From a virus, in IMG/VR virus record IMGVR_UViG_3300043411_002794, positions 1-64,000 of that record: a stretch of DNA of 64,000 bases; one strand, written 5' to 3'. Numbering within the stretch: the first letter of the stretch is position 1; the number at the start of each line of letters is the position of its first letter. Both the position numbers and the translations under genes were made by a program. Under the pieces are notes generated by a model, which did no database searches, had not been told where the DNA came from, and was given only the letters and a program-made list of their open reading frames with translations. Shown here in pieces: positions 16,797 through 53,565 of this stretch.

Positions 16797-18740
16797 CTAC
16801 GCCGCTTGTGGTGGCGCCTGACCTTGTCCTTGCCCCTGCATTTGTGCACGAGCTTGCTGCGAAGCCTGCGAGTCGATCTGACGTCGCTTCTCATCCAGCA
16901 TGCTGTTCACAAGTTGGTGAATGGTTCTATCGCCTTTGCGGAGTTTCGCCAACTCCCCGCGGCGTTGAGCATCCGGACGTTGCAACAAGTCGTCGGAGAT
17001 GGCCTGCGCCTGGGCTTCCAACTCTTCGGGCGTCGTGAAGCCCTTCGGGTTGTTCATCTTGTTCTGCAGGAACTGATCGACGGCCGTCATGGCGCCGCCT
17101 GCAGGTGCCCCGCCAGGCGGAGCTCCGCCGCCGGGTGCACCGCCGCCCTGCGCACCGAGCTGCTGAATCATCTGCGTCGTCGGCGTGGGCGCCAGCATGT
17201 CCATGAGCTCGTCGGTCTGAGCCTTCTGTTCGAGCTCCTTCTGCTTCTTCTGCTGTTCTTCGCCCTCCATCTCCGCTTCGTCCAGCATGCGTCGCGTTTC
17301 GGTCCCGTGGTCGAGACCCACGGACTCGAGCCCGGTGGTCTTGCTGATCTGGTTACCCATCATCAGCTGCAGCTTGGCCATCTGGCGATTCAAGTCGTCG
17401 GCGTGGGTCACGCGAACCATTCGCGCCTTGACGGGCTCCCAGCGCAGGATCTTGGAGACCTGTTGCACCAGCTTGTTCACAAACACGTTCATCGCGTGCA
17501 CAAGATGCGACCAATTAGCCTCAAACAGCCGCAGGGCAGCCGGAGCTGATTGAACAGAGAGCGAACCCTTATAGAACTCGACCGGCACACCGATCGACGT
17601 GAGCAGCGTATCCAGGCCTTGGTCGATGAGATCCTTCGGGGCCAGCTCGTTCGCCTCGCCGCCCAGGGCCTGATATTTCAGAGCCATCGGCAAGACGTTC
17701 CACTTAGCCGGATCTCGTCGATGCTCCGCTAGGAGCTTGTTCACGCGGCCGACGAAGCCGCCCAGGTTGATCGAGTGCACCGGATCGCTGCTCTCGGGCG
17801 AGGCGCCGGGACGAGCATCCGGCGTCAGTACCCGGAACGGCACGACGTAATCGAGGGCAATGGCCTCGTTGTATCGCCACAGGAGCTGCAGGTACCACGC
17901 GATGCGGAAGTTGGTGAGCACGCGACTCAGGCCCCAGCCGCGGTTACGCATACCGGCCAGCGTGTACTCCCGCATGTGATAGATCACGTCGCGGTCGAAC
18001 AGCAGGTTCTGATTGTTCTTGACGGCCTGAATGACTTCCCAGCTGGCCCGCTCCAAATGGTGCAAATGGCCCTGCCGGATCAGCGTGCGGTACTCTTCAG
18101 GGATTTTCCAAACGTAGGAAACCTCGTCCGTGAACGGATCCCAGATCAGATCGATCTCGTGCGGGCTCCACCGCTTGACCTTGATCGCCCCTTCCTCTTG
18201 GCTGCGGCGATCAATATGCCGCCATTCGCCGACGTAGTTGCAGCAGGGGCAGGTCGCGTTGAAGGCGAAGTTACGCCACGAGAAGTTGAACTTCGGCGTG
18301 TTGTAGATCTTCTTGAGCGGAGCCTCGAAACCGCACTGCTTGCAACTCAGGTAGCGGCGGAAGGGCGTCAGCAAACTGGTGAAGCTGTTGCCGTACGTGA
18401 TGTAGTCGAGGGCGATCGAATGCAGCACCGTCTTGATGCCGATCGTATCTTCCAGAAAGGTTTGGTATTTCTGGTGCTCGTCGTGCCCGACTCGCTTGTC
18501 CTCTTGATCGCTGATCTCGATATCGGTGATGAAGTACGAGATCACCCGCTCGACGGCCTGCCGGTAGACGCCATTGCTGTTGAGCAGGTATTCGCACCAC
18601 CGCATGGCTTCCTGGATGCTCGTCGGCATCGCGGTGGAGGCCATGTCACAGAACGGGTCGGGCCAGCGATCATCGTGCCCGAGCGCATTTCGCGCGGGGC
18701 CGAAGTTACCGAGACTCTGTCCGTTGATCGTGGTCGTCAT
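16797..18740 (-). CDS. probable portal protein of a large phage
   Basis: Size (647 aa), WSPHEI, RGWGLS and YNEAIALDYVVPFRVL segments and a coiled-coil/Gly-Gln-rich tail recall portals of large uncultured phages; recognition only. Confidence 0.55.
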   Translation of the reverse strand: MTTTINGQSLGNFGPARNALGHDDRWPDPFCDMASTAMPTSIQEAMRWCEYLLNSNGVYRQAVERVISYFITDIEISDQEDKRVGHDEHQKYQTFLEDTIGIKTVLHSIALDYITYGNSFTSLLTPFRRYLSCKQCGFEAPLKKIYNTPKFNFSWRNFAFNATCPCCNYVGEWRHIDRRSQEEGAIKVKRWSPHEIDLIWDPFTDEVSYVWKIPEEYRTLIRQGHLHHLERASWEVIQAVKNNQNLLFDRDVIYHMREYTLAGMRNRGWGLSRVLTNFRIAWYLQLLWRYNEAIALDYVVPFRVLTPDARPGASPESSDPVHSINLGGFVGRVNKLLAEHRRDPAKWNVLPMALKYQALGGEANELAPKDLIDQGLDTLLTSIGVPVEFYKGSLSVQSAPAALRLFEANWSHLVHAMNVFVNKLVQQVSKILRWEPVKARMVRVTHADDLNRQMAKLQLMMGNQISKTTGLESVGLDHGTETRRMLDEAEMEGEEQQKKQKELEQKAQTDELMDMLAPTPTTQMIQQLGAQGGGAPGGGAPPGGAPAGGAMTAVDQFLQNKMNNPKGFTTPEELEAQAQAISDDLLQRPDAQRRGELAKLRKGDRTIHQLVNSMLDEKRRQIDSQASQQARAQMQGQGQGQAPPQAA

Positions 18741-39042: not shown

Positions 39043-39453
39043 TCAGTCGACATTTTGTGGCACGGCCGGTGTCGAACACTGTAGGTCGTAGGCCTTGTCG
39101 AGTTCCGAGTGATACAGGTGATGCTCGGCAAAATGTGGCGTAACGATACCCGGAAAGAGCATCACATAATCGCCCTCTTCGTTGAGCAGCCCCCATACCG
39201 GTACGCCCGGCGCACTACTGCGGGGTACTGCCTCCGGGTCGTACCAGTGGAGCCGTCGCAGTTCAAACTCAAACATGGTGTCCAGCAAATGTGCAACCCA
39301 TTCCGTGCAACCCGTGCCGGAGAGCAGCTCGCTGCGGTTGAACATCTGCTTGATCTGATCCGGAGTGGGCTCCGGGTCATAAAGCATGAAGTGTTGTTTA
39401 CCGAGGCCGCGAATGTGATCGCCAAACGTATACAGAGAAACGGGAGCGATCAT
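39043..39453 (-). CDS. hypothetical protein (136 aa)
   Basis: ATGA-coupled to the polymerase stop. Confidence 0.65.
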   Translation of the reverse strand: MIAPVSLYTFGDHIRGLGKQHFMLYDPEPTPDQIKQMFNRSELLSGTGCTEWVAHLLDTMFEFELRRLHWYDPEAVPRSSAPGVPVWGLLNEEGDYVMLFPGIVTPHFAEHHLYHSELDKAYDLQCSTPAVPQNVD

Positions 39454-42400
39454 GCGGCCATTGCCTCTTCATAGGTCTTGGGCGGATTCAACATCCACCG
39501 CGGAAGATTGCGCTCGGCAACTTCCTCTTCACTGATGTGCTCACCCCAGTGGATGAACATTTCTTTGTCGATGCCGAAGTAGTACGGCCCCGCATTCAGC
39601 GGCGTGCCGTCCAGGTCCCGTGGTTGGAACGGAACCGACGTCATGCAGCGGGCCATCGTGTCGTAATAAACACGGGCCGCATGCTCAACGGGCACCAACA
39701 GAATGATCGCATCGTGGATCTGCAGCATCAGATGGTAGTAGAACTCGCGGGGATCGAACTGTTTGCGGTAATCAACGAAGTTGAACAACATCTCGTTGAC
39801 CGCTTCGGCCACGCCGTTTTGAATCCCGAAGTTCTGGAACTGCCGCTGCTGCTCGCCGATCACTTGGCGGTCATTTGTGGACTGCAATCTTCGATAGCTA
39901 AGATACGCTCCGCTCATCCAGTGCTGGTTTACGGCCCGTTCACGACAGCGGGCCAGATAAGCATCAACGCCGGAATAGTCATGCAGGTAGCTATCGATCA
40001 TCGCCTGGCACTGATCAACGGTGACGTTCACGCCTTCTTCGGCACACTGCCGGGCGATGGCTTCCGCCGACCGCCCGTACGGGATACCGAAGTTCACGTT
40101 TTTGGCCGCCACATAAAGGCCCTTGTTGCCGGAGTCGCTAAGACCCTTCTTCGTCGGAGCGCACGACAACTGAAACGTGGAACAGGCCCGGCGGGCATGC
40201 ATACCGAAGTAGTCCGGATCGTCCTCTTCCAGATCATTACGCCGGACGTGTTCGATCATCAGCGTATCCTGGGCCTGCCAGGCCAATACGGCCAACTCGG
40301 CGCCCTTGATATCTGCTTCAATCCCGACGTAGCCCGGCGGCACGGTCAACACGGAGCGGATGGGATGGTGATACAACCGTTCGACGCGGAAGATGTCCTT
40401 GTAGGCGCCGTTCAGAATGCGGTTGTAATCGTCCTCGCGTCGCTTCGAGATGTTCTGCAAATTCGGCCTGCGACTGGCAAACCGACAGGTTTCGAGCGTC
40501 TGCAATAAGTGCGTCCGCACCCGGCCGTCGGTACACATGGAGCCGAGCAGGCCGGCGTCATACTCGAAGTTGCCGTCTTCGTCCCGGTTGAACTCTCCGG
40601 TCGATTCATCCTGCGTCGGTTTCCGCAGCACGGTCTTAACGACCTGCGTAAGAAACTTGAGGTCACGAAGCTGCCGCGCAAGCGGATTACGGTGGCCCAG
40701 GATGCCAAGCACTTCTTTGTCGACGGACGGGGCGAAGTTGCCGTCTTCGCGGCGATTGATCAAATCGACCCACAGCTTCTTCCGCTTGCCGGTACTCGTG
40801 ATCGGCTGCAGTCCCAGCGACACAGGTTCCGGATGACCCGGTTCCGGCGTCGGTCGGATCCGCACGAACTGCCCGGTCTGCTTGTCGCGCTTACGGGCAT
40901 ATTCGTCACCGAACAACATGGCGACGCATTGCGGATGGCTCTGATGATTGAAGTTCGGCCAGTTGAGTTTGGTGCGCAAGTCGGCCAGCAACACTTCGCT
41001 GGCCTGCAAGAACACCGAGGTCAGCTCGTCCGCCCGATCCTTATCGATCTGGAAGCCGCACCGTTCCATCTCCAACACCGCCGCAGAGGCTTTGTGATGG
41101 CGATGATACGCGGCCCAGCAGTTGTTACCGAACCGATCGGCGTCCAACAACCCGCCCGGCTTCGTGTGCTGCACGTGGATCCGCAGCGTCACGTCTACGT
41201 CGTAGCAGCCGTAGTGCGGGTTCGTGTCGCCCCGTCGCAACTTGTCAGGGCACAACACTTCCGCCGGACATTCGCCGTACCCTTCCAGGTCCTCGAACTT
41301 GAGATGGTTCACGCTGCAGAAGCGTTTCTTCCATTCGCTCAAAGCCGTGTCGTAGCGAGGACACGTCGTGAGCTTCATGGCCACTTCTTCCAGCTTGAGC
41401 CGTGCCGTCTCGTTAATCGAGTGATGCTCTAACGACGTATCCCAACCGCCCGCACGCGGGTCCGCAGGATCCGGGAAGTATTCGTCCCGTACGTCGAGCC
41501 CCTCGTTGACGAGCCACGGCATATCCGCCCGAAGGAAGTGCCCGCCAATCTTCACCCGACGCCCCGGCGTGCTCTTGCAAAGCCGCCGCATATGGAACAT
41601 CAGGCGTTCGATCGACGGAGAACAGGCCACGGCGCCGCCAGGATGCCGAAGCACCAAGCAGCGGGCCCACTTCTCCTTGTAGGTGAACTGGATCGTACGC
41701 ACGTAAGATCCGGGCTCGCCCGGCTGCTCTCCGTGCCACTCAGCGTCCAGCGCGATCGTGCTGTTCTGCTCCACCGGCAACGCCAAGATCTCGTCCACAA
41801 CGCGAGACAACTCCCGCTCGGTGTAGATGTTGCCGTGATCGACATCCTTCTCCTCGGCTCCGACCTCGCCTCCGTTGATCATGTGCCAGAACAGCCGCAG
41901 CTGCTCCATGAACGGATCTTCAAGCTCAGGTGTCCGGTGCACGGCAGCAGGATGCAGGGCCGCCATGACGCGGATCTTATGCATCTGCGGCTGCTCACCT
42001 TCCCGAGCTTGCAGCGGAACCTCAATATCGATCACCCGGCCGTGCATGTTCGTGACACCGAACGACGACCCGAGCACCGCCTTAGAGGCTTCGGAGCCGA
42101 GACAGAGCAGGTACTTCGGCCGCACGAGCCGCAGCTCTTCGTGGAGCAGCGGCAGGCAATTCTTGATCCACGTCGTCGGCATGCTGCCGAGATTCGGATC
42201 AAGGGCCCCGTGCTTCACGAGGTTGGTGACGTACCAGCTATTGGCGACGTCGGTCGGAATGCCGAGCTCGTACACCGCTTTGTGCAGCTCATCGCTTGCC
42301 GGGCCGATGAAGTTGCATCTGCGCGACAACTCATCCTGCCCGGGCTGCTTGCCGAGAATCATGACGTCCGACTGCATCGGGCCGCCGCCGAAGTTGTCTG

Positions 42401-42752
42401 TGGAATAGCCCCACAGATGCCCCGGCACAAACTGAGCCGGCAAGAGCCGACCCTTGAGATCCACCTGGATCATAAACGTCGGGTCATACAGAGCCCGGCG
42501 ATAGAGGTAGTGCAAACACGGACCAATGGATCGCAGGCGTTTATTGACGCCCGTGCCCATGAAGACCGTGTCGGTGTCGCCCATCAATTCTGCTTGCCGC
42601 AGGAAGTCGGGTCCCGGCAAGGGCATCCCGACGGCGTCCAGCGGATAGAACGGGAATTCGCGGTCGAGATGTTCGCTCGGTCGTCCCTGCAAAATCCCTG
42701 AAAAAGCTTCCAACGTCTGTTCGTAGCTCGTTGGAACGGCAGTTGTCGTCAT
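39450..42752 (-). CDS. polA: family A DNA polymerase with N-terminal uracil-DNA-glycosylase-like domain (SPO1-type)
   Basis: UDG4-like GKQPG...FIGPAS...TNLVKH...LHPAAV; Exo LDAEW; motif A DIKGAEL, motif B AAKNVNFGIPYG, motif C QIHDAI. Confidence 0.93.
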   Translation of the reverse strand: MTTTAVPTSYEQTLEAFSGILQGRPSEHLDREFPFYPLDAVGMPLPGPDFLRQAELMGDTDTVFMGTGVNKRLRSIGPCLHYLYRRALYDPTFMIQVDLKGRLLPAQFVPGHLWGYSTDNFGGGPMQSDVMILGKQPGQDELSRRCNFIGPASDELHKAVYELGIPTDVANSWYVTNLVKHGALDPNLGSMPTTWIKNCLPLLHEELRLVRPKYLLCLGSEASKAVLGSSFGVTNMHGRVIDIEVPLQAREGEQPQMHKIRVMAALHPAAVHRTPELEDPFMEQLRLFWHMINGGEVGAEEKDVDHGNIYTERELSRVVDEILALPVEQNSTIALDAEWHGEQPGEPGSYVRTIQFTYKEKWARCLVLRHPGGAVACSPSIERLMFHMRRLCKSTPGRRVKIGGHFLRADMPWLVNEGLDVRDEYFPDPADPRAGGWDTSLEHHSINETARLKLEEVAMKLTTCPRYDTALSEWKKRFCSVNHLKFEDLEGYGECPAEVLCPDKLRRGDTNPHYGCYDVDVTLRIHVQHTKPGGLLDADRFGNNCWAAYHRHHKASAAVLEMERCGFQIDKDRADELTSVFLQASEVLLADLRTKLNWPNFNHQSHPQCVAMLFGDEYARKRDKQTGQFVRIRPTPEPGHPEPVSLGLQPITSTGKRKKLWVDLINRREDGNFAPSVDKEVLGILGHRNPLARQLRDLKFLTQVVKTVLRKPTQDESTGEFNRDEDGNFEYDAGLLGSMCTDGRVRTHLLQTLETCRFASRRPNLQNISKRREDDYNRILNGAYKDIFRVERLYHHPIRSVLTVPPGYVGIEADIKGAELAVLAWQAQDTLMIEHVRRNDLEEDDPDYFGMHARRACSTFQLSCAPTKKGLSDSGNKGLYVAAKNVNFGIPYGRSAEAIARQCAEEGVNVTVDQCQAMIDSYLHDYSGVDAYLARCRERAVNQHWMSGAYLSYRRLQSTNDRQVIGEQQRQFQNFGIQNGVAEAVNEMLFNFVDYRKQFDPREFYYHLMLQIHDAIILLVPVEHAARVYYDTMARCMTSVPFQPRDLDGTPLNAGPYYFGIDKEMFIHWGEHISEEEVAERNLPRWMLNPPKTYEEAMAA

Positions 42753-45591: not shown

Positions 45592-46281
45592 TTATCCTTT
45601 CGGGCTAGTCATTTCGCGCTGAATCTGCGTAGCTTCATCGCGAATAGGTTGCGGCAGCGTCGGTAGTAATCGGTCGTACGCAACGCGATTGAACAGGTAT
45701 TCCACGGCGGCCTGACGGAGAAAGTCCGCCGCCAATTCATGCAGACCAAACTCAGTTGCCATGCAGTACCGCAGCAGCGGTCCCGCCTGCACGCGGTGTC
45801 GGTCACAAATAGCCGTGACCTGAATGGCTCGATCCGTTTGGGCCGGATAGAGTCGTTTCAAAGCCCAGATCTCGGTCTGCACGACTTCCCGTTGTCGATG
45901 CCACGACTCGGCAATCTCTGAGCTGCGCTCGGCGGTGATCTGGTAATAGTGCGAAAGAATATCACCGTGTGTCAGCGTATTCGGGGCAGGCGGCGTACGC
46001 CCGCGACGAAGTGCAAACGCCGCCTGGATGTACACGATCGGATCGAGCTGGTGCTGCGTGAAGAAGTCGGCCAGCCGCGGCCAGATCGGCCGGTGGTTAC
46101 GACCAAACGAATCGCGACCGCCATCCCAGTGCGGGATCTCTTCATCGCCGTAGGTCAGCGCCGACGGACACGCACGACGATACTCGGCGCAGTAGATGCT
46201 CCGAATAAACGTCGGCAGTACCGCTTCGGTGATCTCTCCCAAACCTTCGCCGAGAGAGATTCCTCGTCTCGGGTCGGTCAT
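45592..46281 (-). CDS. hypothetical protein, possible helicase loader
   Basis: Between SF2 helicase and DnaB; helical, YIQAAF...PAPNTL; role inferred from position. Confidence 0.55.
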   Translation of the reverse strand: MTDPRRGISLGEGLGEITEAVLPTFIRSIYCAEYRRACPSALTYGDEEIPHWDGGRDSFGRNHRPIWPRLADFFTQHQLDPIVYIQAAFALRRGRTPPAPNTLTHGDILSHYYQITAERSSEIAESWHRQREVVQTEIWALKRLYPAQTDRAIQVTAICDRHRVQAGPLLRYCMATEFGLHELAADFLRQAAVEYLFNRVAYDRLLPTLPQPIRDEATQIQREMTSPKG

Positions 46282-47792
46282 AGGAAAGATCTCGTCATTT
46301 CGGCTTGGCCAATTTGTCGCTTACCCTGGTCCCAGTCCTGATCCCACTCCAGTTCCTTGTAGGTTCCATAGCGGGACTTGGAGCGACGCAAGAAGTCGTC
46401 GTCCCAGTAGTCGATCGTGTCGATCACCTGGCCGTACTCTTTGCCGTCGTGCAAACGAGAGGCACGACCAGGGCCCTGGGTATCCAGGATTTCCGAACTG
46501 CGGGCATCGGCCCGCACGACGGTCTGCAGGGCGGTGAAGTCGACGCCGGTCGCCCAGACGTCAGTGGCGATCACTCGCTTGAGCTGTTGCTGTTCGAACG
46601 CGAGCTGCATGTTGTAGCGCACTTCCGACGTCACATCGACGAAGTGCTGCGGCAACATTCCCGTCGCCTTGTAGTTGTTGAATTCCTCCGGCTTCATTTC
46701 CGCATAGCACAGCGCGAAGTCTTTCAACTCCTGCCACAGGTGCACGGCATGCTCAACGGTCTCGACCAACACGAGCACCTGCTCGTCGGCCGGGATCGTA
46801 CGAACCTCGTCGGCGATGATCCTGTTGCGGAACGCATTTCGCCAGATTCCCCATCGCTTCTGTGCCGTGTCCTTCTTGCCCTTCGCCGGATTCTTGTCCA
46901 TGCGAATCGGCAACCAACGTACGCGGATCGGAACGACCAACCCGAGACGCACGGCCTCGGCGTAGGACATCTCGAAAAGCAACGGGCCGAACAAACCTTC
47001 CAACCGGACTTCGGCTCCATCCATCCGACCGAACGGCGTGGCGGAGAACCCGAAGTTACGGCTAAACCGATAAATCTCGGCCAGCTTGTTGGCATAGTTG
47101 TCGGTCACCAGCTGGTGACATTCATCGCCAAAGAGGAAGTCGGCGTCGCCGTTGCTGCGATGCACGCTATCGGCCGTGATAACCATGACGCGCCCCCACT
47201 GGGCCTTTCCGCCGCCCAGCATCCCGACGCTCGGCAAGTACTTCCGCAGCTGCCGCATGATACGACTGGCCACGGCTACCTGCTTCACAACGATGTGGAT
47301 GTTGGCATACGGATAGCGAAGCGCCATGGCGCAGATCAGCGAGGTCTTACCGAAACCGGTCGGAGCCTTGATGACCCCGCCGCGGTGGCGATCCATCGTC
47401 TCCACGCACTCCTGCTGCCGTGCCCGGTACTGCAGCACCTGCTCGATGTTGTTGGCAAACAGCTGGAAGCGATTCGGTCGATGATGATCGGCCGTCAGAT
47501 CGAGCTCACGGACATGGTGCCCGAGCGAACGAAGCTTCTGTACGATCGACTGTGCGAAGCCGGCCGCACAAGTAAAGCGGCCTTCGTCCAAACGATAGAG
47601 CGTCCGTGTCTGCAGCGAGACGGGGCGGTAGACGCCCTCGGGGTTGGCGTACGCTGCGCGGCCGCGAAGAAAAGTTTTATGGGTGTAGGTCAGCCCTGGC
47701 GCCAGGGCCGAGACTATCTCGGGAGGAAGAGGATTCTTTCCGTCCGGCGAGACGTCGATGAGATTTGCGCTGCGACGAATAAGAATGTGCAT
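46278..47792 (-). CDS. superfamily 2 helicase (UvsW/XPB-like)
   Basis: APTGFGKT, DECH, GFSAT, ATDVWATGVD and QGPGRASR; start MHILIRR. Confidence 0.9.
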   Translation of the reverse strand: MHILIRRSANLIDVSPDGKNPLPPEIVSALAPGLTYTHKTFLRGRAAYANPEGVYRPVSLQTRTLYRLDEGRFTCAAGFAQSIVQKLRSLGHHVRELDLTADHHRPNRFQLFANNIEQVLQYRARQQECVETMDRHRGGVIKAPTGFGKTSLICAMALRYPYANIHIVVKQVAVASRIMRQLRKYLPSVGMLGGGKAQWGRVMVITADSVHRSNGDADFLFGDECHQLVTDNYANKLAEIYRFSRNFGFSATPFGRMDGAEVRLEGLFGPLLFEMSYAEAVRLGLVVPIRVRWLPIRMDKNPAKGKKDTAQKRWGIWRNAFRNRIIADEVRTIPADEQVLVLVETVEHAVHLWQELKDFALCYAEMKPEEFNNYKATGMLPQHFVDVTSEVRYNMQLAFEQQQLKRVIATDVWATGVDFTALQTVVRADARSSEILDTQGPGRASRLHDGKEYGQVIDTIDYWDDDFLRRSKSRYGTYKELEWDQDWDQGKRQIGQAEMTRSFL

Positions 47793-47846
47793 ACGTCCAC
47801 CGTATTTCGTATCCGGAAGACTTGCACACCCCAACAGCTTGCGCTA

Positions 47847-48407
47847 TCATTGTGAAGTCGTTCCATTGGTGCCAGCCGATTGGAAGCCACAGGGGTCTTG
47901 CGATGCCGGTCGCAAGACCCCATTTTTTATGCGCTGTTCTTCCGAGAAGACTCGGCGTCCCAACGCGGTAATTTCAAACGTACCGTACTTCTCCCGTTTG
48001 TCGTGATAGGGCGAGAAGCCTCGCTCTTTCCCGATAAACGTCAACAGTCGATGGAACGCCGGCAGCTCCATCTCCTCGGGCAACTTAGCGTGCACTTGAA
48101 TCGTGCTGCCGGGCTCGAACTGCTCATGAAACACAAAGGCCTGCGGACCAGCGGCCGTCTTTCTGCGATACGACTGCGTGGACGGAACCCCGTGAATCAC
48201 GAGATCCCAAGCAACGCGATCGACCATCCCTTGACAACTGTTCGTCGTCATGGCGGCGTACCGCAATAACGACTCCCACTGCTCAGGAAGAAAGATGATT
48301 TGCCGCTGCGCGTTGCGGAGAAAGCGAAACCAAGCCCCTTTGCCGCGGCGCTCTCGCACAGTCCCTAAACAAGGGAACGTGAATTCGAGCGTAGCGGTGA
48401 CTTCCAT
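47847..48407 (-). CDS. stand-alone Cas7/RAMP-like protein
   Basis: N-terminal strand MEVTATLEFTFPCLG and C-terminal Gly-loop LLTFIGKERGFSP...KYGTFEI fit the RAMP (RRM-fold) pattern. Confidence 0.55.
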   Translation of the reverse strand: MEVTATLEFTFPCLGTVRERRGKGAWFRFLRNAQRQIIFLPEQWESLLRYAAMTTNSCQGMVDRVAWDLVIHGVPSTQSYRRKTAAGPQAFVFHEQFEPGSTIQVHAKLPEEMELPAFHRLLTFIGKERGFSPYHDKREKYGTFEITALGRRVFSEEQRIKNGVLRPASQDPCGFQSAGTNGTTSQ

Positions 48408-48458
48408 TTCTCAACTCCGAGCGCGGTCGGCCATCCTAGCTTCGTGCCATATGGCGTG

Positions 48459-49388
48459 TCAAACAGTAGTCGCGAACTCCGCGAGGTGCGACTTATAAGC
48501 CGTGAGCTCATCATCAGTTTTGAAGATTCTAGTCGGATCAAAAACATCAACCTGCTGTCGATTGAGTCCCTGCAGCCAGGTGTAATTCAGGAACGACAAG
48601 AACATTTGTGAGGCCCGCAGATCACCCCGCGCGCCGCGTCCGGCAGCATGCCAGATGCGCCACAAGAAATGCCCGGGGATTTGCATCTCAGCCGCGGAAG
48701 GCGGTTCCCGGTGCTGCCATGCTGCTAGCACGCAGAAGTTGCGTCGCGACTGCGCATCAATCACCAGCGACGTTGACGACGAAACCTGGGCCTGTTGCTG
48801 CACGTCGAGCCCCATGAACCGCCGCAACTTGTTGGTACGGTAAGGAGTATCCGAAGCAACATACCAACGCGGATCGCGAATCGCCGCCACCACGTGTGCG
48901 ACGAAGTAGGGATGCAGATCCTGCAGAAAACACAGCGAGGACCATGCCGGATGCCGTCGCAAGAGCTCGAGTCCCGTGGCGTCCAAGTCACCCGCATTTT
49001 CACGTAATCGTTTTGCCAGGGCATAGGTCACGTAATCTCCGGCAGTCATCGTATGCCAGCCGCCTAGTGCCGGCGGCAACGAACACTGCCGCATCCGAAA
49101 CAAAGCAATCTGCGGATTCTGCAGCTCGCGACGCGTGCTGCAAAGCAACGGACTAGCCACCTCAAAACGAGCCACCGACTGACCCAACTGCTGGTAGAGG
49201 CCTACCAGCAGGTCCACGTTGCCCTCGGTGCCGAGCAGACGAATACTGCGCGGCCGGGTGAATAACGGCCCAGTCACAAAATTGTGTGACGGCATACGAG
49301 ACGAACACGGCGACCGCGTACCGTCGGAGTACCACACGATGCCGTCCGGCGCCGTGTGAATTTTAAGCGTAAGTTCTTCGGCAATCAC
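48459..49388 (-). CDS. IS110/Nop-domain-like protein, RuvC catalytic residues apparently lost
   Basis: HPAW...AHVVAAIRDPRWY...KLRRFMGL and RASQMFLSFLNYTW match the Transposase_20/Nop pattern; N-terminal LKIH where IS110 has GID. Confidence 0.55.
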   Translation of the reverse strand: MIAEELTLKIHTAPDGIVWYSDGTRSPCSSRMPSHNFVTGPLFTRPRSIRLLGTEGNVDLLVGLYQQLGQSVARFEVASPLLCSTRRELQNPQIALFRMRQCSLPPALGGWHTMTAGDYVTYALAKRLRENAGDLDATGLELLRRHPAWSSLCFLQDLHPYFVAHVVAAIRDPRWYVASDTPYRTNKLRRFMGLDVQQQAQVSSSTSLVIDAQSRRNFCVLAAWQHREPPSAAEMQIPGHFLWRIWHAAGRGARGDLRASQMFLSFLNYTWLQGLNRQQVDVFDPTRIFKTDDELTAYKSHLAEFATTV

Positions 49389-49406
49389 GGGTACGGCGCT
49401 CCGTAA

Positions 49407-51617
49407 TTACAGGGAGATGACGTGGTCGAACAGCGGCGCGAGTTCTTCTTCGTGCGTGACGATGATCACCTGCAGGCCGCGATCGGCCAGGATCCCGCGT
49501 AAACGGTCGAACACCGGGGCAAATGCGGCAATCGCCTTCTTGTCGAGATAGGCGGTTGGCTCGTCGAGGAACAGTACATCCAGATTCTCAGCGAACTGGA
49601 CGGCGGCAGCAATCCGGAACAACCAGGCAAGCAGGGTCTTCTGCCCGCCGGAAAGCCGTCGAGCACCCTGGCGGCGGCCGTCGTGAAAGAGGGCTGAGAA
49701 GTTCAGCGAGTCGTCGGCCATGACGGTAAACGGGGCGTCGCAGATCCGGAGCAAGTCGTTCAGCTCGCCCTCGGCCCGCTGCAAACGGGTCTGCAGCACG
49801 ATCTTTTGCGATTGCTTGAGGGCTTCCTGAACTTCCGTGCCTTCCTGGATCCAGTTACGCATCCGGTTCGCCTCAGCAATCCGCTGCGACATCCGTTGCG
49901 ACTCGGCCAGCAGCTGCTCGACCTGCGGCCGCAACCCGGCTACCCGCGTCGAGCAGGTCACGTGGAGCTGCTGCTGCGACGTACGCTGCATGATCCGCGT
50001 GGCGGCCGCCTGAGCCTCTTCCGGCTTCGGTGCGTTCAGCCAACGCTGCGTAAGGGCCTGCAGCTGCTCCTGCTTGGCCGCTATCGATCCTTCCGACTTG
50101 GCGACGCGTTCTTCGATCGTCGAGATCTTGGCCCGTACCTGAGTCAGCATCACCGATGCCTCGTCGTAGGTCTTGATCTTGGACTGCCACTCCACGGCGT
50201 TGCCGTCGACCGGCGTCAACGTCTGCGGCGACTGAAGTTGCGTCCGCAGCGTCTTGAGTTCGCTTTCACGCACGGCATTAGCCTGCGACCAAGCCGCGTG
50301 CGCCTGCTGTTGCTGTACCCGCTTCGCCCGGGCCTGCTGATAAGTCGTAGTAGCGGCTAGGTATTGATCTGCAGCCTGTTGAGCAACAGCCCGCAACTCC
50401 GTAAGCTCGGCCTGCAGAGTAGCCAGTTGCTGCGACTTACCCGGGATTCCGGCCTCCACCTTGGACACGGTGTCCGCGATGTTGGTCGTAGGAGTCCGGC
50501 ACGTCGGGCACTCGGCAATCCCGGTCAAACGAAACTGCGAAACATACGACTGATCCTTGAGGATCTCGGCAGTAATAGCCGCAATCGCATTGCCCAGCTC
50601 GGCGACGCGGGGATTCGTTTCCGGCGGCTTCGGCGCCTCCGGTTCGGCATCGACGGTCGGTTCGGGTGTACCGCTCCGCTCCAGCACGGCAACACGGTCC
50701 TGCCATTGCTGCCGCTGCTCCAGCACTTGCTGGTAATTGCGCAAGTTGATGATCGCCGCCCGAATCGCGTCCACGTTCTGGCGTTCCGCGGTGATCATGT
50801 TCTCCAGGCTAAGCGCCGCCGATCGCAGTTCAATCAGCGAGGACTTGTCCGGAAAGATCGCTGCGGTGAGCTGGCTGATCTCCATCGCCAAGGCGTCCTG
50901 CTGCCCGGTGGCGGCAAGATACCCGGCATAAGCATCTACGATCTTTTGATCGGCAGACTGGGCCGTCGCGAAGTCCGCGATCGAATCCACTACCGCCAGT
51001 TGCTGCTCGGCCTGCGCCAATTCAGCTTGCTTCTGCTGCAAATTAAGCAGCAGCGTATCGAGGTTGCCCTGCGTCTCCGCAGGCACCTGCAGCTTAGAAT
51101 CGTGGTCGGCGATCGCCTTGATGCAGCGGGCCGCGTGCGTCGTGTCGAACAGCTGCTGAAACAGCTTCAGCCGTACCTCGGGCTGCTCGGCCAAGAACCC
51201 GAAGATATCTTCCTGGGCCACGAGCATAAAACGATCCACGAGCTTCGGATCAAGCCCATACAACTCGGCCAGCTTAGCGGTGACCTTCGTCTCGCCGGCC
51301 GCCGCCAGGACGCCGTCGTACTGTAGCGTCGCTTGATCCGTGTCGGGACGGAGGCTGCGGTACAACTCGAAGTTGTGTCCGCGCTTGGTCATCTTCATCC
51401 GCGCGTTCGCCCGTTCGTGCGGCGGGGCGAGCTGGTAGATGTTTTCCTGCTTGGTCCCGAAGTTCGGGTTCAAGCCGGTCCACAGCCATTTCACCGCCGC
51501 CTGGATGTTTGACTTACCGGACCCGTTCGGCCCGATCAGGGCCGTGATTCCAGGCCCGAATTCAAGCACACGGTGACTGTGCTGGCACCAATTGACCAGC
51601 GTCAACTCCGTAATCAT
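49407..51617 (-). CDS. sbcC: SbcC/Rad50-like ABC ATPase (gp46-like)
   Basis: GPNGSGKS, coiled coils, CPTC Zn hook, LSGGQK, FLDEP and IIVTH. Confidence 0.93.
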   Translation of the reverse strand: MITELTLVNWCQHSHRVLEFGPGITALIGPNGSGKSNIQAAVKWLWTGLNPNFGTKQENIYQLAPPHERANARMKMTKRGHNFELYRSLRPDTDQATLQYDGVLAAAGETKVTAKLAELYGLDPKLVDRFMLVAQEDIFGFLAEQPEVRLKLFQQLFDTTHAARCIKAIADHDSKLQVPAETQGNLDTLLLNLQQKQAELAQAEQQLAVVDSIADFATAQSADQKIVDAYAGYLAATGQQDALAMEISQLTAAIFPDKSSLIELRSAALSLENMITAERQNVDAIRAAIINLRNYQQVLEQRQQWQDRVAVLERSGTPEPTVDAEPEAPKPPETNPRVAELGNAIAAITAEILKDQSYVSQFRLTGIAECPTCRTPTTNIADTVSKVEAGIPGKSQQLATLQAELTELRAVAQQAADQYLAATTTYQQARAKRVQQQQAHAAWSQANAVRESELKTLRTQLQSPQTLTPVDGNAVEWQSKIKTYDEASVMLTQVRAKISTIEERVAKSEGSIAAKQEQLQALTQRWLNAPKPEEAQAAATRIMQRTSQQQLHVTCSTRVAGLRPQVEQLLAESQRMSQRIAEANRMRNWIQEGTEVQEALKQSQKIVLQTRLQRAEGELNDLLRICDAPFTVMADDSLNFSALFHDGRRQGARRLSGGQKTLLAWLFRIAAAVQFAENLDVLFLDEPTAYLDKKAIAAFAPVFDRLRGILADRGLQVIIVTHEEELAPLFDHVISL

Positions 51618-52492
51618 CGAGTCTCCATGGAGATATTTCGTAAAGGTTTGTGATAACCGCCGACTTCACGTTCATCGACAGTCAGCGTTTTGACGCACCA
51701 TTCCTGCAACTGCATTGCACGCGCCCGCTGCGGATCGTATTCAAAGTTGTAGTCGCACTGCTCAGTAAGAAACACGGCGACCTTGCGGGGCAGCGCCGGT
51801 GCCGCCCCACTAAACAAAACCGACGGATCCGTACGCTGGAAACAACTTCGACACTGCCCGTCGACGTACCAACCGCCGCACCGACCGCAGAAAGAAAAGT
51901 TGATCCGCGGTAACTCGCAGTCAAGTTGCGCAGACTCTTCGTTGTACTTCACGAGAGTGACAATCGAATTATCCAGCACCTCGCAAAGCGGGTTGTGGTC
52001 GGCCATCGTCAAAATTGTGGCCCAGTTTTCGCGAAGCGCACCAAACACGGAACGGACGACGGCACCCTTCTCGCCCATCAAGCAGAAGTTGGCTGTCGAT
52101 CGATACCGGGGCGGCGGCTCGGTTGTCGGGCTGTACTCGTCGGCTGCCTTAGCCTGCGCATAATCCGGCGAGTTCGGCTGCAACAAAAAGTGCGAATCAC
52201 CAGGACCGGGCAAGGTATCCAACCAACGGGCGCCGGCGAAGTACATGCTGCGCATCTTCCAGTTCAGCGCTTCGCGAATGCAATACCGACAAACGACACC
52301 GCGGAACAATGTCCCCGGTCCGTAAAAATACGTCACCCGCCCGGTAGTCTTGCGAGTCTCCGGATCCAACAGACGAACAATCTCGTCGTCGGACAGCTGC
52401 GGTGCAATTCGCCGAATGTCCGCATGGCCCGGCCCATAAATTACGCCGGTACGTTCCGGCGGATTTAAGCTGTAGTCTGTGGTGTCTGGCAT
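51614..52492 (-). CDS. hypothetical Zn-binding protein
   Basis: CRYC and CGRC...CRSC; sits between sbcD and sbcC; start MPDTTD. Confidence 0.65.
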   Translation of the reverse strand: MPDTTDYSLNPPERTGVIYGPGHADIRRIAPQLSDDEIVRLLDPETRKTTGRVTYFYGPGTLFRGVVCRYCIREALNWKMRSMYFAGARWLDTLPGPGDSHFLLQPNSPDYAQAKAADEYSPTTEPPPRYRSTANFCLMGEKGAVVRSVFGALRENWATILTMADHNPLCEVLDNSIVTLVKYNEESAQLDCELPRINFSFCGRCGGWYVDGQCRSCFQRTDPSVLFSGAAPALPRKVAVFLTEQCDYNFEYDPQRARAMQLQEWCVKTLTVDEREVGGYHKPLRNISMETR

Positions 52493-53565
52493 GTGTCCCG
52501 TTCGTACTGCGCGTATTGTTCTTTCGTCTCGGCGTCCGGATCCGGTGACGCCAACAAACGGGCGCACCGCTCCTGCACGCGCGGGTTCAAGCTGACGACG
52601 CGCACGGCGGCCGCCAGTGACTCCGTCGTACTGGGCGGCAGTTCCCGTACGGCGATTTCCATCTCCATCTGACGCGGAATACGCTTCCAGAAAAGATGGC
52701 AGTTCCCGCTCGCAGCCTCGGTGAGCCGCGAGTACACATCCGGAACATCTTCATAGAAGATGATACGAACAAGCGGCAGCAGTTGCTGGTCGCAATGCTC
52801 AGAGATCGTCAGCCCGCTCCGCATGAACGTACAAAGCTGATCCAGTTCTGCGGCCGCACTAATCGTGAACTCGAAGTACGGCCGTGTACGCAAATAGATC
52901 GGCGTCGGATCGGTCATCGCCGTGTCGAGCAGGAACACGCACTTCTGCGGCGGCTCGGCAATGTTGCGCATATGCGTCGAGCCGGTGGAAAGAACCTTCA
53001 TCCGCTGCCCGGTCTTACCGACGGCTTCCTTGATGTAGGTGTCGTGATAGTCGCCAGTGAGTACCCAACCGGCGTACGGAACATCAACAAACGCTCCGTC
53101 CGTCTTACCGACGCCCATCACGTCCGACCACACCTCGTGGCAAAGCAGCACGGACGTATCCGGCGAGATCTCGTCGAGAGCTTGCTGCAACTCGATGCGC
53201 GGCAGCCAGTCCAGGCCGTACACGACGCTGTCGCCAAGCTGCTGGCTACGGCGATTCATATGCGTCGGATGCCCGTGCACCAACAACCACGGCGTCACGC
53301 GGTCCAGTTCGTGCTGACCCTGAATCACCAACACGGGCAGCCCTGCTTCCTGCATTCTGTCCATTTGCCGACAGAAGCATTCCACGGAGCGGGGGTCAGG
53401 ACGTCGCTTCTCGAAGACGTCGCCTAACAAGAACAGCGGCAACTGCATGCCGATCGCAATATCGACGACCTGTGCAAAAGCACGGTAAGCGTCCCCGTCA
53501 ATTTCCGGTCGATCGACCCAAGCACCTGGGGAAAGGTGCGGGTCGCCGCAAACGATTGCTCGCAT
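52465..53565 (-). CDS. sbcD: SbcD/Mre11-like metallophosphoesterase nuclease (gp47-like)
   Basis: GDPH, LGDVF, GQHE and GDYH motifs. Confidence 0.9.
   Translation of the reverse strand: MRAIVCGDPHLSPGAWVDRPEIDGDAYRAFAQVVDIAIGMQLPLFLLGDVFEKRRPDPRSVECFCRQMDRMQEAGLPVLVIQGQHELDRVTPWLLVHGHPTHMNRRSQQLGDSVVYGLDWLPRIELQQALDEISPDTSVLLCHEVWSDVMGVGKTDGAFVDVPYAGWVLTGDYHDTYIKEAVGKTGQRMKVLSTGSTHMRNIAEPPQKCVFLLDTAMTDPTPIYLRTRPYFEFTISAAAELDQLCTFMRSGLTISEHCDQQLLPLVRIIFYEDVPDVYSRLTEAASGNCHLFWKRIPRQMEMEIAVRELPPSTTESLAAAVRVVSLNPRVQERCARLLASPDPDAETKEQYAQYERDTCQTPQTTA

Follow-up and report, generated by a model that had tools for sequence, protein, structure and literature searches.

The TIGR-Tas systems were defined by Faure et al. 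2025 (PMC12045711); the features by which we compare them here are an N-terminal RuvC-fold domain, a Nop-type RNA-binding domain, a coiled-coil dimerization domain between the two, and an array supplying guide RNAs (tigRNAs). Xu et al. (bioRxiv 10.64898/2026.09.09.750476) have since described dead-RuvC TasR proteins and TasA as RNA-guided repressors, and have reported that stem-loop tigRNAs can sit at flexible or intragenic positions. The same preprint, of September 2026, poses as an open question a compact TasR "long branch" in dense viral genomes that has neither array nor coiled-coil, and leaves an "alternative guide RNA source" possible for that branch. Here we consider gene X, a phage gene in a window of 64,000 nucleotides (nt) that comprises positions 1 to 64,000 of IMG/VR record IMGVR_UViG_3300043411_002794; coordinates are those of the window unless a genome is named. 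There is, in our estimation, about an even chance that X is a compact TasR relative, with a dead RuvC domain and a Nop-type domain, that has become a core gene of a replication operon and has no detectable array. X fits the description of the long branch and may belong to it. An original prediction, made from the sequence alone, had called X an IS110/Nop-like protein, domesticated rather than mobile, that binds DNA under RNA guidance without cutting it. The gene and its two domains are as follows.

48459-49388, minus strand: gene X, an open reading frame (ORF) for a 309-residue TasR-like protein, with a GTG start and a TGA stop.
49053-49388, minus strand: N-terminal RNase H/RuvC-like domain of X (residues 1-112), with a degenerate active site, recognized by its secondary structure and by matches to RuvX, RuvC and TnpB.
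48462-49052, minus strand: C-terminal Nop/IS110-Tnp-like helical domain of X (residues 113-309), recognized by the domain model, VIA-align, hhalign and conservation counts.

The AlphaFold2 model of X has a predicted local distance difference test score (pLDDT) of 93.6 and a predicted template modeling score of 0.91, with pLDDT nowhere below 50. Its secondary structure runs β-β-β-α-β-α-β over residues 7-78 and continues into an all-helical domain. With the full-length model, Foldseek places TIGR-TasR (9mty_B) first, at a probability of 0.99, followed by IS621 (0.94) and ISCro4. VIA-align also aligns X best with TasR 9mty_B (Z 11.0, 231 residues aligned, spanning residues 6-302), then with TasH (Z 8.1, residues 119-299) and with the IS110 protein ISCro4 (Z 7.0, 237 residues aligned). 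Matches to RuvX/YqgF, RuvC, poxvirus resolvase and the RuvC domains of TnpB and Cas12 are confined to the N-domain, at Z 5-6.5, the similarity to the RuvC fold being Z 5.2-5.7. The RuvC-like strands that had been proposed for this region are thus present in the model.

The C-domain, folded alone, has a pLDDT of 94.4. By VIA-align it matches TasR (Z 10.2, 151 residues aligned), TasH (Z 9.2, 147 aligned), IS110 (Z 7.0), and, with 117-120 residues aligned, two Nop5 entries (Z 4.9) and Prp31 (Z 4.4). All of the top six are Nop-superfamily proteins, and the remaining background is at or below 3.7. Foldseek with the C-domain alone returned no matches, although VIA-align gave them. The two domains that mark a TIGR-Tas protein, an N-terminal RuvC fold and a Nop-type RNA-binding fold, are therefore both found in X, and we regard it as very probable that X belongs to the Tas/IS110 superfamily of RuvC plus Nop proteins. 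Of the proteins with which the original prediction had proposed a structural alignment, TasR, IS621 and Nop5, all match. The label IS110/Nop-like survives in part: the IS110 and Nop5 matches support it, but in the predicted structure the nearest relative of X is TasR and not IS110 (Z 11.0 versus 7.0).

In sequence the relationships are much fainter. Similarity to Transposase_20 appears in just 3 of 44 homologues, at an expectation value (E) of 0.04. When the X family is compared by hhalign with a profile built from six IS110 transposases taken from bacterial genomes, a match with E 2e-4 is found over residues 135-202, in which the DPRW of X is paired with the GDxxRF of IS110, and the G193-L-x-P of X with the GLxP of IS110. 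The N-domain has no sequence-level match to the IS110 profile (E 0.49). The motifs of the C-domain are a near-invariant DPRW (48864-48875), G193-L-x-P, and a helix with the sequence G-D-L-R-A-S-Q. A Transposase_20-like C-terminal half, as first proposed, is thus well founded in structure and faintly visible in sequence. A different link to the Tas proteins comes from AF-A0A3M1VGY1, a member of the Data S1 seed alignment for the TIGR hidden Markov model of Faure 2025. Two segments of this protein match the X-family profile, with probabilities of 99% (E 7e-18) and 97% (E 1e-11), so that relatives of X had already been swept into the Tas set.

Is the RuvC-like domain of X an active nuclease? The residues at issue are these.

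49356-49358, 49239-49241 and 49125-49127, minus strand: codons of His11, Arg50 and Glu88, which together with Asn91 make up the degenerate site of X, as judged from column counts.

Residues of the N-domain were placed by secondary structure and motif spacing rather than by residue-level superposition, the correspondence with the IS110 motifs vGiDvsK, mEatG and KtDxxDa being inferred from hhalign, and were counted over 189 family members. Position 11 lies at the end of strand 1 (His11-Thr12), at the site of the first Asp of RuvC-type enzymes. The family has His at this position in 134 members, Thr in 17, Tyr in 10, Gln in 9 and Cys in 5, with 5 gaps; no acidic residue is found among these six commonest states, which cover 180 of the 189 rows (about 96%). 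The first catalytic Asp is accordingly missing, as had been noticed from the sequence. Arg50, present in 173 of 189 members, sits three residues ahead of the conserved G53, the same place relative to the Gly that the catalytic Glu occupies in the IS110 motif mEatG, and probably replaces that Glu, as reported for dead TasRs. In the solved dead TasRs, the first two positions are R8 and V126 (CsTasR), or the pocket is filled by an Arg (PateTasR) (bioRxiv 10.64898/2026.09.09.750476). The spacing of E88-x-x-D91 resembles that of IS110 KTDxxDA, and the two positions are partly conserved: Glu in 110 and Asp in 16 members at position 88, Asp in 105 and Asn in 36 at position 91. The X protein of this window is one of those with Asn91. 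The column that aligns with the catalytic Ser of IS110, position 201, is unconserved.

It follows from these columns that X lacks the four conserved acidic RuvC residues of an active TasR, as well as the D-E-D-D/H site of the RuvC resolvases. It also lacks the DEDD RuvC domain of IS110 (PF01548), to which it has no Pfam match, and the Tnp domain with its catalytic Ser (PF02371), to which it has only the faint similarity described above. X appears to have lost the canonical nuclease and recombinase residues, a loss that the original prediction had asserted and that His11, Arg50 and the unconserved Ser column support by inference, and its RuvC site is likely to be inactive.

Other parts of the Tas architecture are missing as well. 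Of 176 members counted, 175 lack the G-x-G turn that the helix-hairpin-helix of Tas and IS110 proteins typically has. The last helix of X ends at residue 308 of 309, which leaves no space for the 27-residue C-terminal Y/H loop with which dual-repeat Tas proteins process tigRNA. The tandem-spacer mechanism depends on a coiled-coil dimerization domain. Helices in X reach 24 residues at most, and the one that first follows the RuvC domain has 15; from these lengths no coiled-coil of the Nop5/TasR type is predicted between the RuvC domain and the Nop core. A homodimer prediction for X gave a score of 0.00, which we count neither for nor against any reading.

Does the phage encode a guide for X somewhere else, as the original prediction supposed? 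We scanned both strands of the 192-kb genome to which the window belongs (G000) and of three complete relatives (G001, G002 and G004) with simplified versions of both TIGRFinder sub-pipelines, using rules from Xu et al. (bioRxiv 10.64898/2026.09.09.750476). The dual-repeat chain finder accepted any box C/box D, required 4 or more intervals, and allowed spacers of 8-12 nt and gaps of 2-9 nt. In the four genomes its only hits were coding repeats, near-perfect and with periods divisible by 3, and shuffled sequence gave none. The stem-loop finder returned 0-3 units in each genome, as many as in shuffled sequence, with no clusters. No tigRNA-like unit lies within 300 nt of X even under relaxed rules. 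A scan with Tandem Repeats Finder and for autocorrelation and periodicity agreed with the motif finders in showing no array. In sum, an array of the TIGR-Tas kind is found neither at 46 loci of the X family nor in the four genomes, and the idea of a guide RNA encoded elsewhere is not borne out, for arrays of either type, in the phage's own genome or in the three complete relatives.

Several candidates were considered and rejected in the course of the search. A 48-nt repeat at 159842-160059 of the genome is a Pro/Gly-rich coding repeat. The periodic regions seen across the four genomes all have periods divisible by 3, bar one borderline case, a 46-nt signal at G001 18508-18702 with a match of 0.53. 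The box-C-N9-box-D chains coincide with coding repeats, and three isolated stem-loop "units" in G000 are scattered and at shuffled level. A segment of 82 nt conserved in DNA, at 146035-146116 of the genome, is the N-terminus of a minus-strand gene. We also observed a low-complexity stretch of 1.3 kb in the phage genome (G000:C1:75300-76600) with nested periods of 24, 30, 36, 60, 100 and 107 nt; several frames are open there on each strand, and the stretch, which is not a TIGR array, probably encodes a Ser/Thr/Ala/Val-rich repeat protein.

There is also no room for a bridge RNA in the immediate flanks of X, as the original prediction had pointed out.

49389-49406, minus strand: spacer of 18 nt from the stop of the sbcC-like gene to the start of X, holding the GGAG ribosome-binding site of X, 9 nt before the GTG.
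48408-48458, minus strand: spacer of 51 nt from the 3' end of X to the start of the next gene, with a promoter-like match and a ribosome-binding site, and no RNA gene.

The 51-nt spacer holds no structured RNA (fold z-score of 0.41 versus shuffled sequence), and Rfam has no matches over the whole window. A σ70-like sequence, TTGACA-18-TAGGAT (10/12), is found at 48433-48462 on the minus strand, overlapping the stop codon of X. It could drive the next gene and the helicase gene beyond it separately from sbcCD and X. Inside the promoter-like match is a 10-bp palindrome, GCCATATGGC (48446), that occurs once in the genome.

X is a real and strongly conserved gene. A word-indexed search yields 44 homologues of 270-346 residues, with E down to 1e-209, all of them called hypothetical and none with a Pfam domain. 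With clustering at 50% identity, an exhaustive HMMER search extends the family to 755 representatives, of which 571 have E values no higher than 1e-10, and 17 columns of the family alignment are invariant. A profile search for distant or fused forms found just hypothetical proteins of the same family and no longer fusions, which is weak evidence. X itself has no match in Pfam, PHROGs, NCBIfam or PADLOC, none in a sequence profile search of the PDB, and none in a fold search of BFVD. The ESM Atlas offered LIC12162 as an identity for X, with a score of 0.89; the count of shared features was low, and we take this match as chance.

The family is restricted to phages. It is found on 44 IMG/VR contigs, many of 190-225 kb, and in only 2 of 185,579 species-representative genomes, both of these being contigs of metagenome-assembled genomes (MAGs) with phage gene order. 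The GenBank phage collection, searched with DNA and protein, holds nothing similar to X, so there is no known cultured relative.

X also has a fixed place in the genome. The neighboring genes that matter for the argument are these.

49407-51617, minus strand: SbcC/Rad50-like ATPase (Pfam SMC_N, AAA_23 and SbcC_Walker_B; PHROG 77).
52465-53565, minus strand: SbcD/Mre11-like phosphoesterase (Pfam Metallophos, PHROG 100; synteny).
47847-48407, minus strand: 186-residue protein of no known family, the conserved 3' neighbor of X in 41 of 46 loci.
46278-47834, minus strand: superfamily 2 (SF2; ResIII/DEAD) DNA helicase (Pfam ResIII and Helicase_C; PHROG 16; synteny).
39450-42752, minus strand: family A DNA polymerase (PolA) of 1100 residues, with an N-terminal domain of the uracil-DNA glycosylase (UDG) superfamily.

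Synteny was examined at the 44 IMG/VR and 2 MAG loci by tblastn searches with the window's neighboring proteins. The order SbcD, SbcC, X, 186-residue protein, SF2 helicase, 229-residue protein, DnaB, primase, PolA is found at all 46, with X itself only 30-41% identical across the syntenic loci, and SbcC lies directly upstream of X in 45 of 45 loci for which there is upstream sequence. The genes are closely packed: by estimate the median spacing is about -11 nt (an overlap) between X and sbcC and about 7 nt between X and the next gene, and sbcC and X are some -14 to +23 nt apart in 41 of 43 related loci. Where wider gaps occur 3' of X, at six loci, they are filled by extra ORFs on the same strand and not by arrays. 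X is single-copy in six genomes, its own (93% complete) and five relatives, of which four are rated 100% complete by CheckV and two have terminal repeats. No Transposase_20 match is found in the phage's own genome.

Given the fixed synteny and the single copy, X is a vertically inherited core gene of a phage replication/recombination operon, in a widespread lineage of phages of about 190-230 kb. It does not belong to the mobile elements or to the accessory genes of defense systems or islands, and the view of X as not mobile has held up. Its place beside sbcCD and the replisome genes suggests a housekeeping role in DNA metabolism at least as much as any other.

Some further observations concern the operon and the phage genomes at large. 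The 186-residue protein has no match in Pfam, PHROGs, NCBIfam or PADLOC; the Atlas returns only viral hypothetical clusters for it, a score of 0.78 for RAMPs being at chance level. Within the 3' end of its gene, just before the helicase start, the plus strand (47892-47921) carries a perfect G+C-rich hairpin of 13 bp and then ATTTTTT; this may serve as a terminator, antisense or bidirectional, or as a regulatory hairpin. Some 850 nt (51618-52464) separate sbcD from sbcC in this genome, whereas the two genes are directly adjacent in most related loci. This interval is occupied by an ORF of 317 residues without a family (51614-52567, minus strand), with a low coding score, a third-position G+C content of 0.64, and a frame that shares about 100 nt with the end of sbcD; the frame may have been mis-called, or the ORF may be an inserted moron. 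ARAGORN finds transfer-messenger RNA genes beside tRNA clusters in two related phage genomes of about 205 kb (G001:C1:23302-23661 and G002:C1:59467-59807), and a single tRNA, Arg-TCT at 168326-168411, in the phage's own genome. Near-perfect tandem duplications of 108 and 135 nt at the right contig end (G000:C1:191777-192180) could be an assembly artifact or part of a terminal repeat.

How does X compare with the individual systems described so far? X finds its closest analogue in a catalytically dead TasR and not, as first supposed, in the nuclease-less TasA, because X retains a RuvC-fold domain. PateTasR and CsTasR share with X a RuvC-fold N-domain with substituted catalytic positions, including the Arg in the pocket, a Nop-type C-domain, and the lack of a C-terminal Y/H processing loop. 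They differ in having a coiled-coil dimerization domain of their own and cognate stem-loop arrays, neither of which is seen for X, and a fixed place in an sbcCD/replisome operon is not reported in the preprint of Xu et al. TaTasR (PDB 9mty), an active dual-repeat TIGR-TasR nuclease (PMC12045711), is the best structural match of X over both domains, yet the two proteins share only 12-13% sequence identity with no sequence-level match, and X lacks three things that TaTasR possesses, namely the set of four conserved acidic residues, the coiled-coil dimer and the 36-nt tigRNA array. TasA, which consists of a Nop domain only, resembles X in its Nop-type RNA-binding fold and in not cleaving, as we presume of X; TasA has stem-loop arrays and no RuvC-fold domain, whereas in X a RuvC-like domain is kept and folded (pLDDT above 90), and we could find no array.

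The bridge-RNA recombinases of the IS110 group (IS621, PDB 8wt9; ISCro4, PDB 9t56) have the same order of a RuvC and then a Tnp/Nop domain, and share core motifs with X (GDxxRF versus DPRW, and GLxP in both). X is unlike them in having no DEDD, no catalytic Ser, no Pfam-level match and no upstream non-coding bridge RNA, and in being single-copy and syntenic, hence non-mobile. The resemblance to Nop5, Nop56, Nop58 and Prp31 is much weaker and limited to the core fold of the C-domain; X has no fibrillarin-binding N-domain, its own being RNase H-like, and no coiled-coil, so that it is not a box C/D protein of the Nop5 or Nop56/58 kind.

Could X nonetheless be RNA-guided, a non-cleaving DNA binder like dead TasR or TasA with its guide lying elsewhere in the phage genome, within a gene, or drawn from transcripts of host or phage? 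Its fold comes nearest to those of TasR and TasH, and the Nop-like domain keeps conserved basic and aromatic residues. There are precedents, too, in the dead-RuvC TasR and TasA repressors, in flexible or intragenic stem-loop tigRNAs, and in the alternative guide source allowed for the array-less branch (bioRxiv 10.64898/2026.09.09.750476). We nevertheless think this unlikely. Neither dual-repeat nor stem-loop units rise above the shuffled level in four genomes, three of them complete, and none lies in or near gene X, whose model contains no disordered insertion able to host an intragenic tigRNA. A strictly syntenic place in a replication operon is, moreover, unlike the accessory and variable TIGR loci. 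Programmable RNA-guided DNA targeting by X we hold to be similarly doubtful, because an array supply is unsupported and no coiled-coil is predicted that would bring two Nop domains together on an RNA with two spacers. An IS110 origin in the narrow sense, with X as a decaying or newly inserted transposase remnant, would account for the faint Transposase_20 and hhalign similarities; however, full-length proteins strongly conserved over hundreds of clusters, present in single copy at a fixed place, and without DEDD, catalytic Ser, bridge-RNA space or an IS110 Pfam match, are not what a remnant looks like. The combination of an intact DEDD with mobile copies, which would have spoken for a true transposase, is not seen, and conservation and synteny effectively refute the remnant, to which we assign next to no chance.

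A further possibility is that X does cut, as a structure-specific nuclease whose RNase H-like site is non-canonical but active, and that it supplies a Holliday-junction resolvase or the removal of Okazaki primers. Such a function seems to be missing in the phage: in Pfam searches of the genome, RuvC (PF02075), RNase H and the flap endonuclease (FEN) 5'-3' exonuclease have no match, and no 5'-3' exonuclease domain is detected in its PolA, with its UDG-like N-domain. X sits between sbcCD and an SF2 helicase, positions H11, N57, E88 and D91 are conserved, and RuvC, RuvX and the poxvirus resolvases are structural neighbors of its N-domain. The missing-nuclease argument covers three families, however, with endonuclease VII and RusA outside the search; two of the four metal-binding positions are His or Arg across the family, D91 is Asn in this protein as in 36 of 189, and the solved dead TasRs, CsTasR and PateTasR, carry comparable substitutions. 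An active nuclease is accordingly quite improbable. We see an equally slim chance for a more specialized arrangement, in which a TasR-type RuvC plus Nop protein has been recruited as an essential subunit with SbcCD, the 186-residue partner and the SF2 helicase, and recognizes DNA through RNA that does not come from an array, for instance primers, R-loop transcripts or one fixed RNA of the phage.

We therefore return to X as a compact relative of dead TasR in a replication operon. X would be a non-cleaving nucleic-acid-binding subunit, whose Nop-like domain and dead RuvC scaffold may hold RNA, an RNA-DNA hybrid or a branched DNA structure. It would act in phage DNA replication, recombination or end processing, and not as a programmable, array-fed targeting system. 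To our knowledge, all characterized TasR, TasH, TasA, IS110, Nop5 and Prp31 proteins act via bound RNA. Since every characterized protein of the Nop superfamily binds RNA, X by analogy more likely than not binds some RNA as well. The same fact tells against our reading to the extent that a guide-free X would be a departure from its superfamily, and it is not the only one to do so. The array finders use published box C/D motifs, and a single, divergent, intragenic or motif-less guide would escape them. The phage's own genome is, by estimate, only 93% complete. His11, Asn57, Glu88 and Asp91 could form a non-canonical site. Finally, the link from X to SbcCD and the helicase comes from gene order, which argues only weakly for a complex.

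Xu et al. had already flagged a compact, array-less branch of TasR, and a relative of X is present in the Faure 2025 seed alignment; what is new here is the invariant setting in the replication operon, the finding that complete genomes contain no detectable array anywhere, and the residue pattern. TIGR-Tas and IS110 are the newest families of proteins that target DNA under RNA guidance, and their characterized members are all defined by a guide RNA. The X family is a phage-restricted branch of at least 755 clusters that has the two-domain fold without a detectable array, a predicted coiled-coil or a canonical active site. X thereby makes the question of Xu et al. (2026) concrete: is there an unrecognized source of guides, or does the RuvC plus Nop scaffold work guide-free in DNA metabolism? 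If X were a recruited subunit reading DNA through non-array RNA, it would be either a guide-scavenging or fixed-guide offshoot of TIGR-Tas or the survivor of an ancestral, pre-array state. Either answer to the question bears on how RNA-guided systems may arise from, or decay into, housekeeping nucleic-acid-binding proteins.

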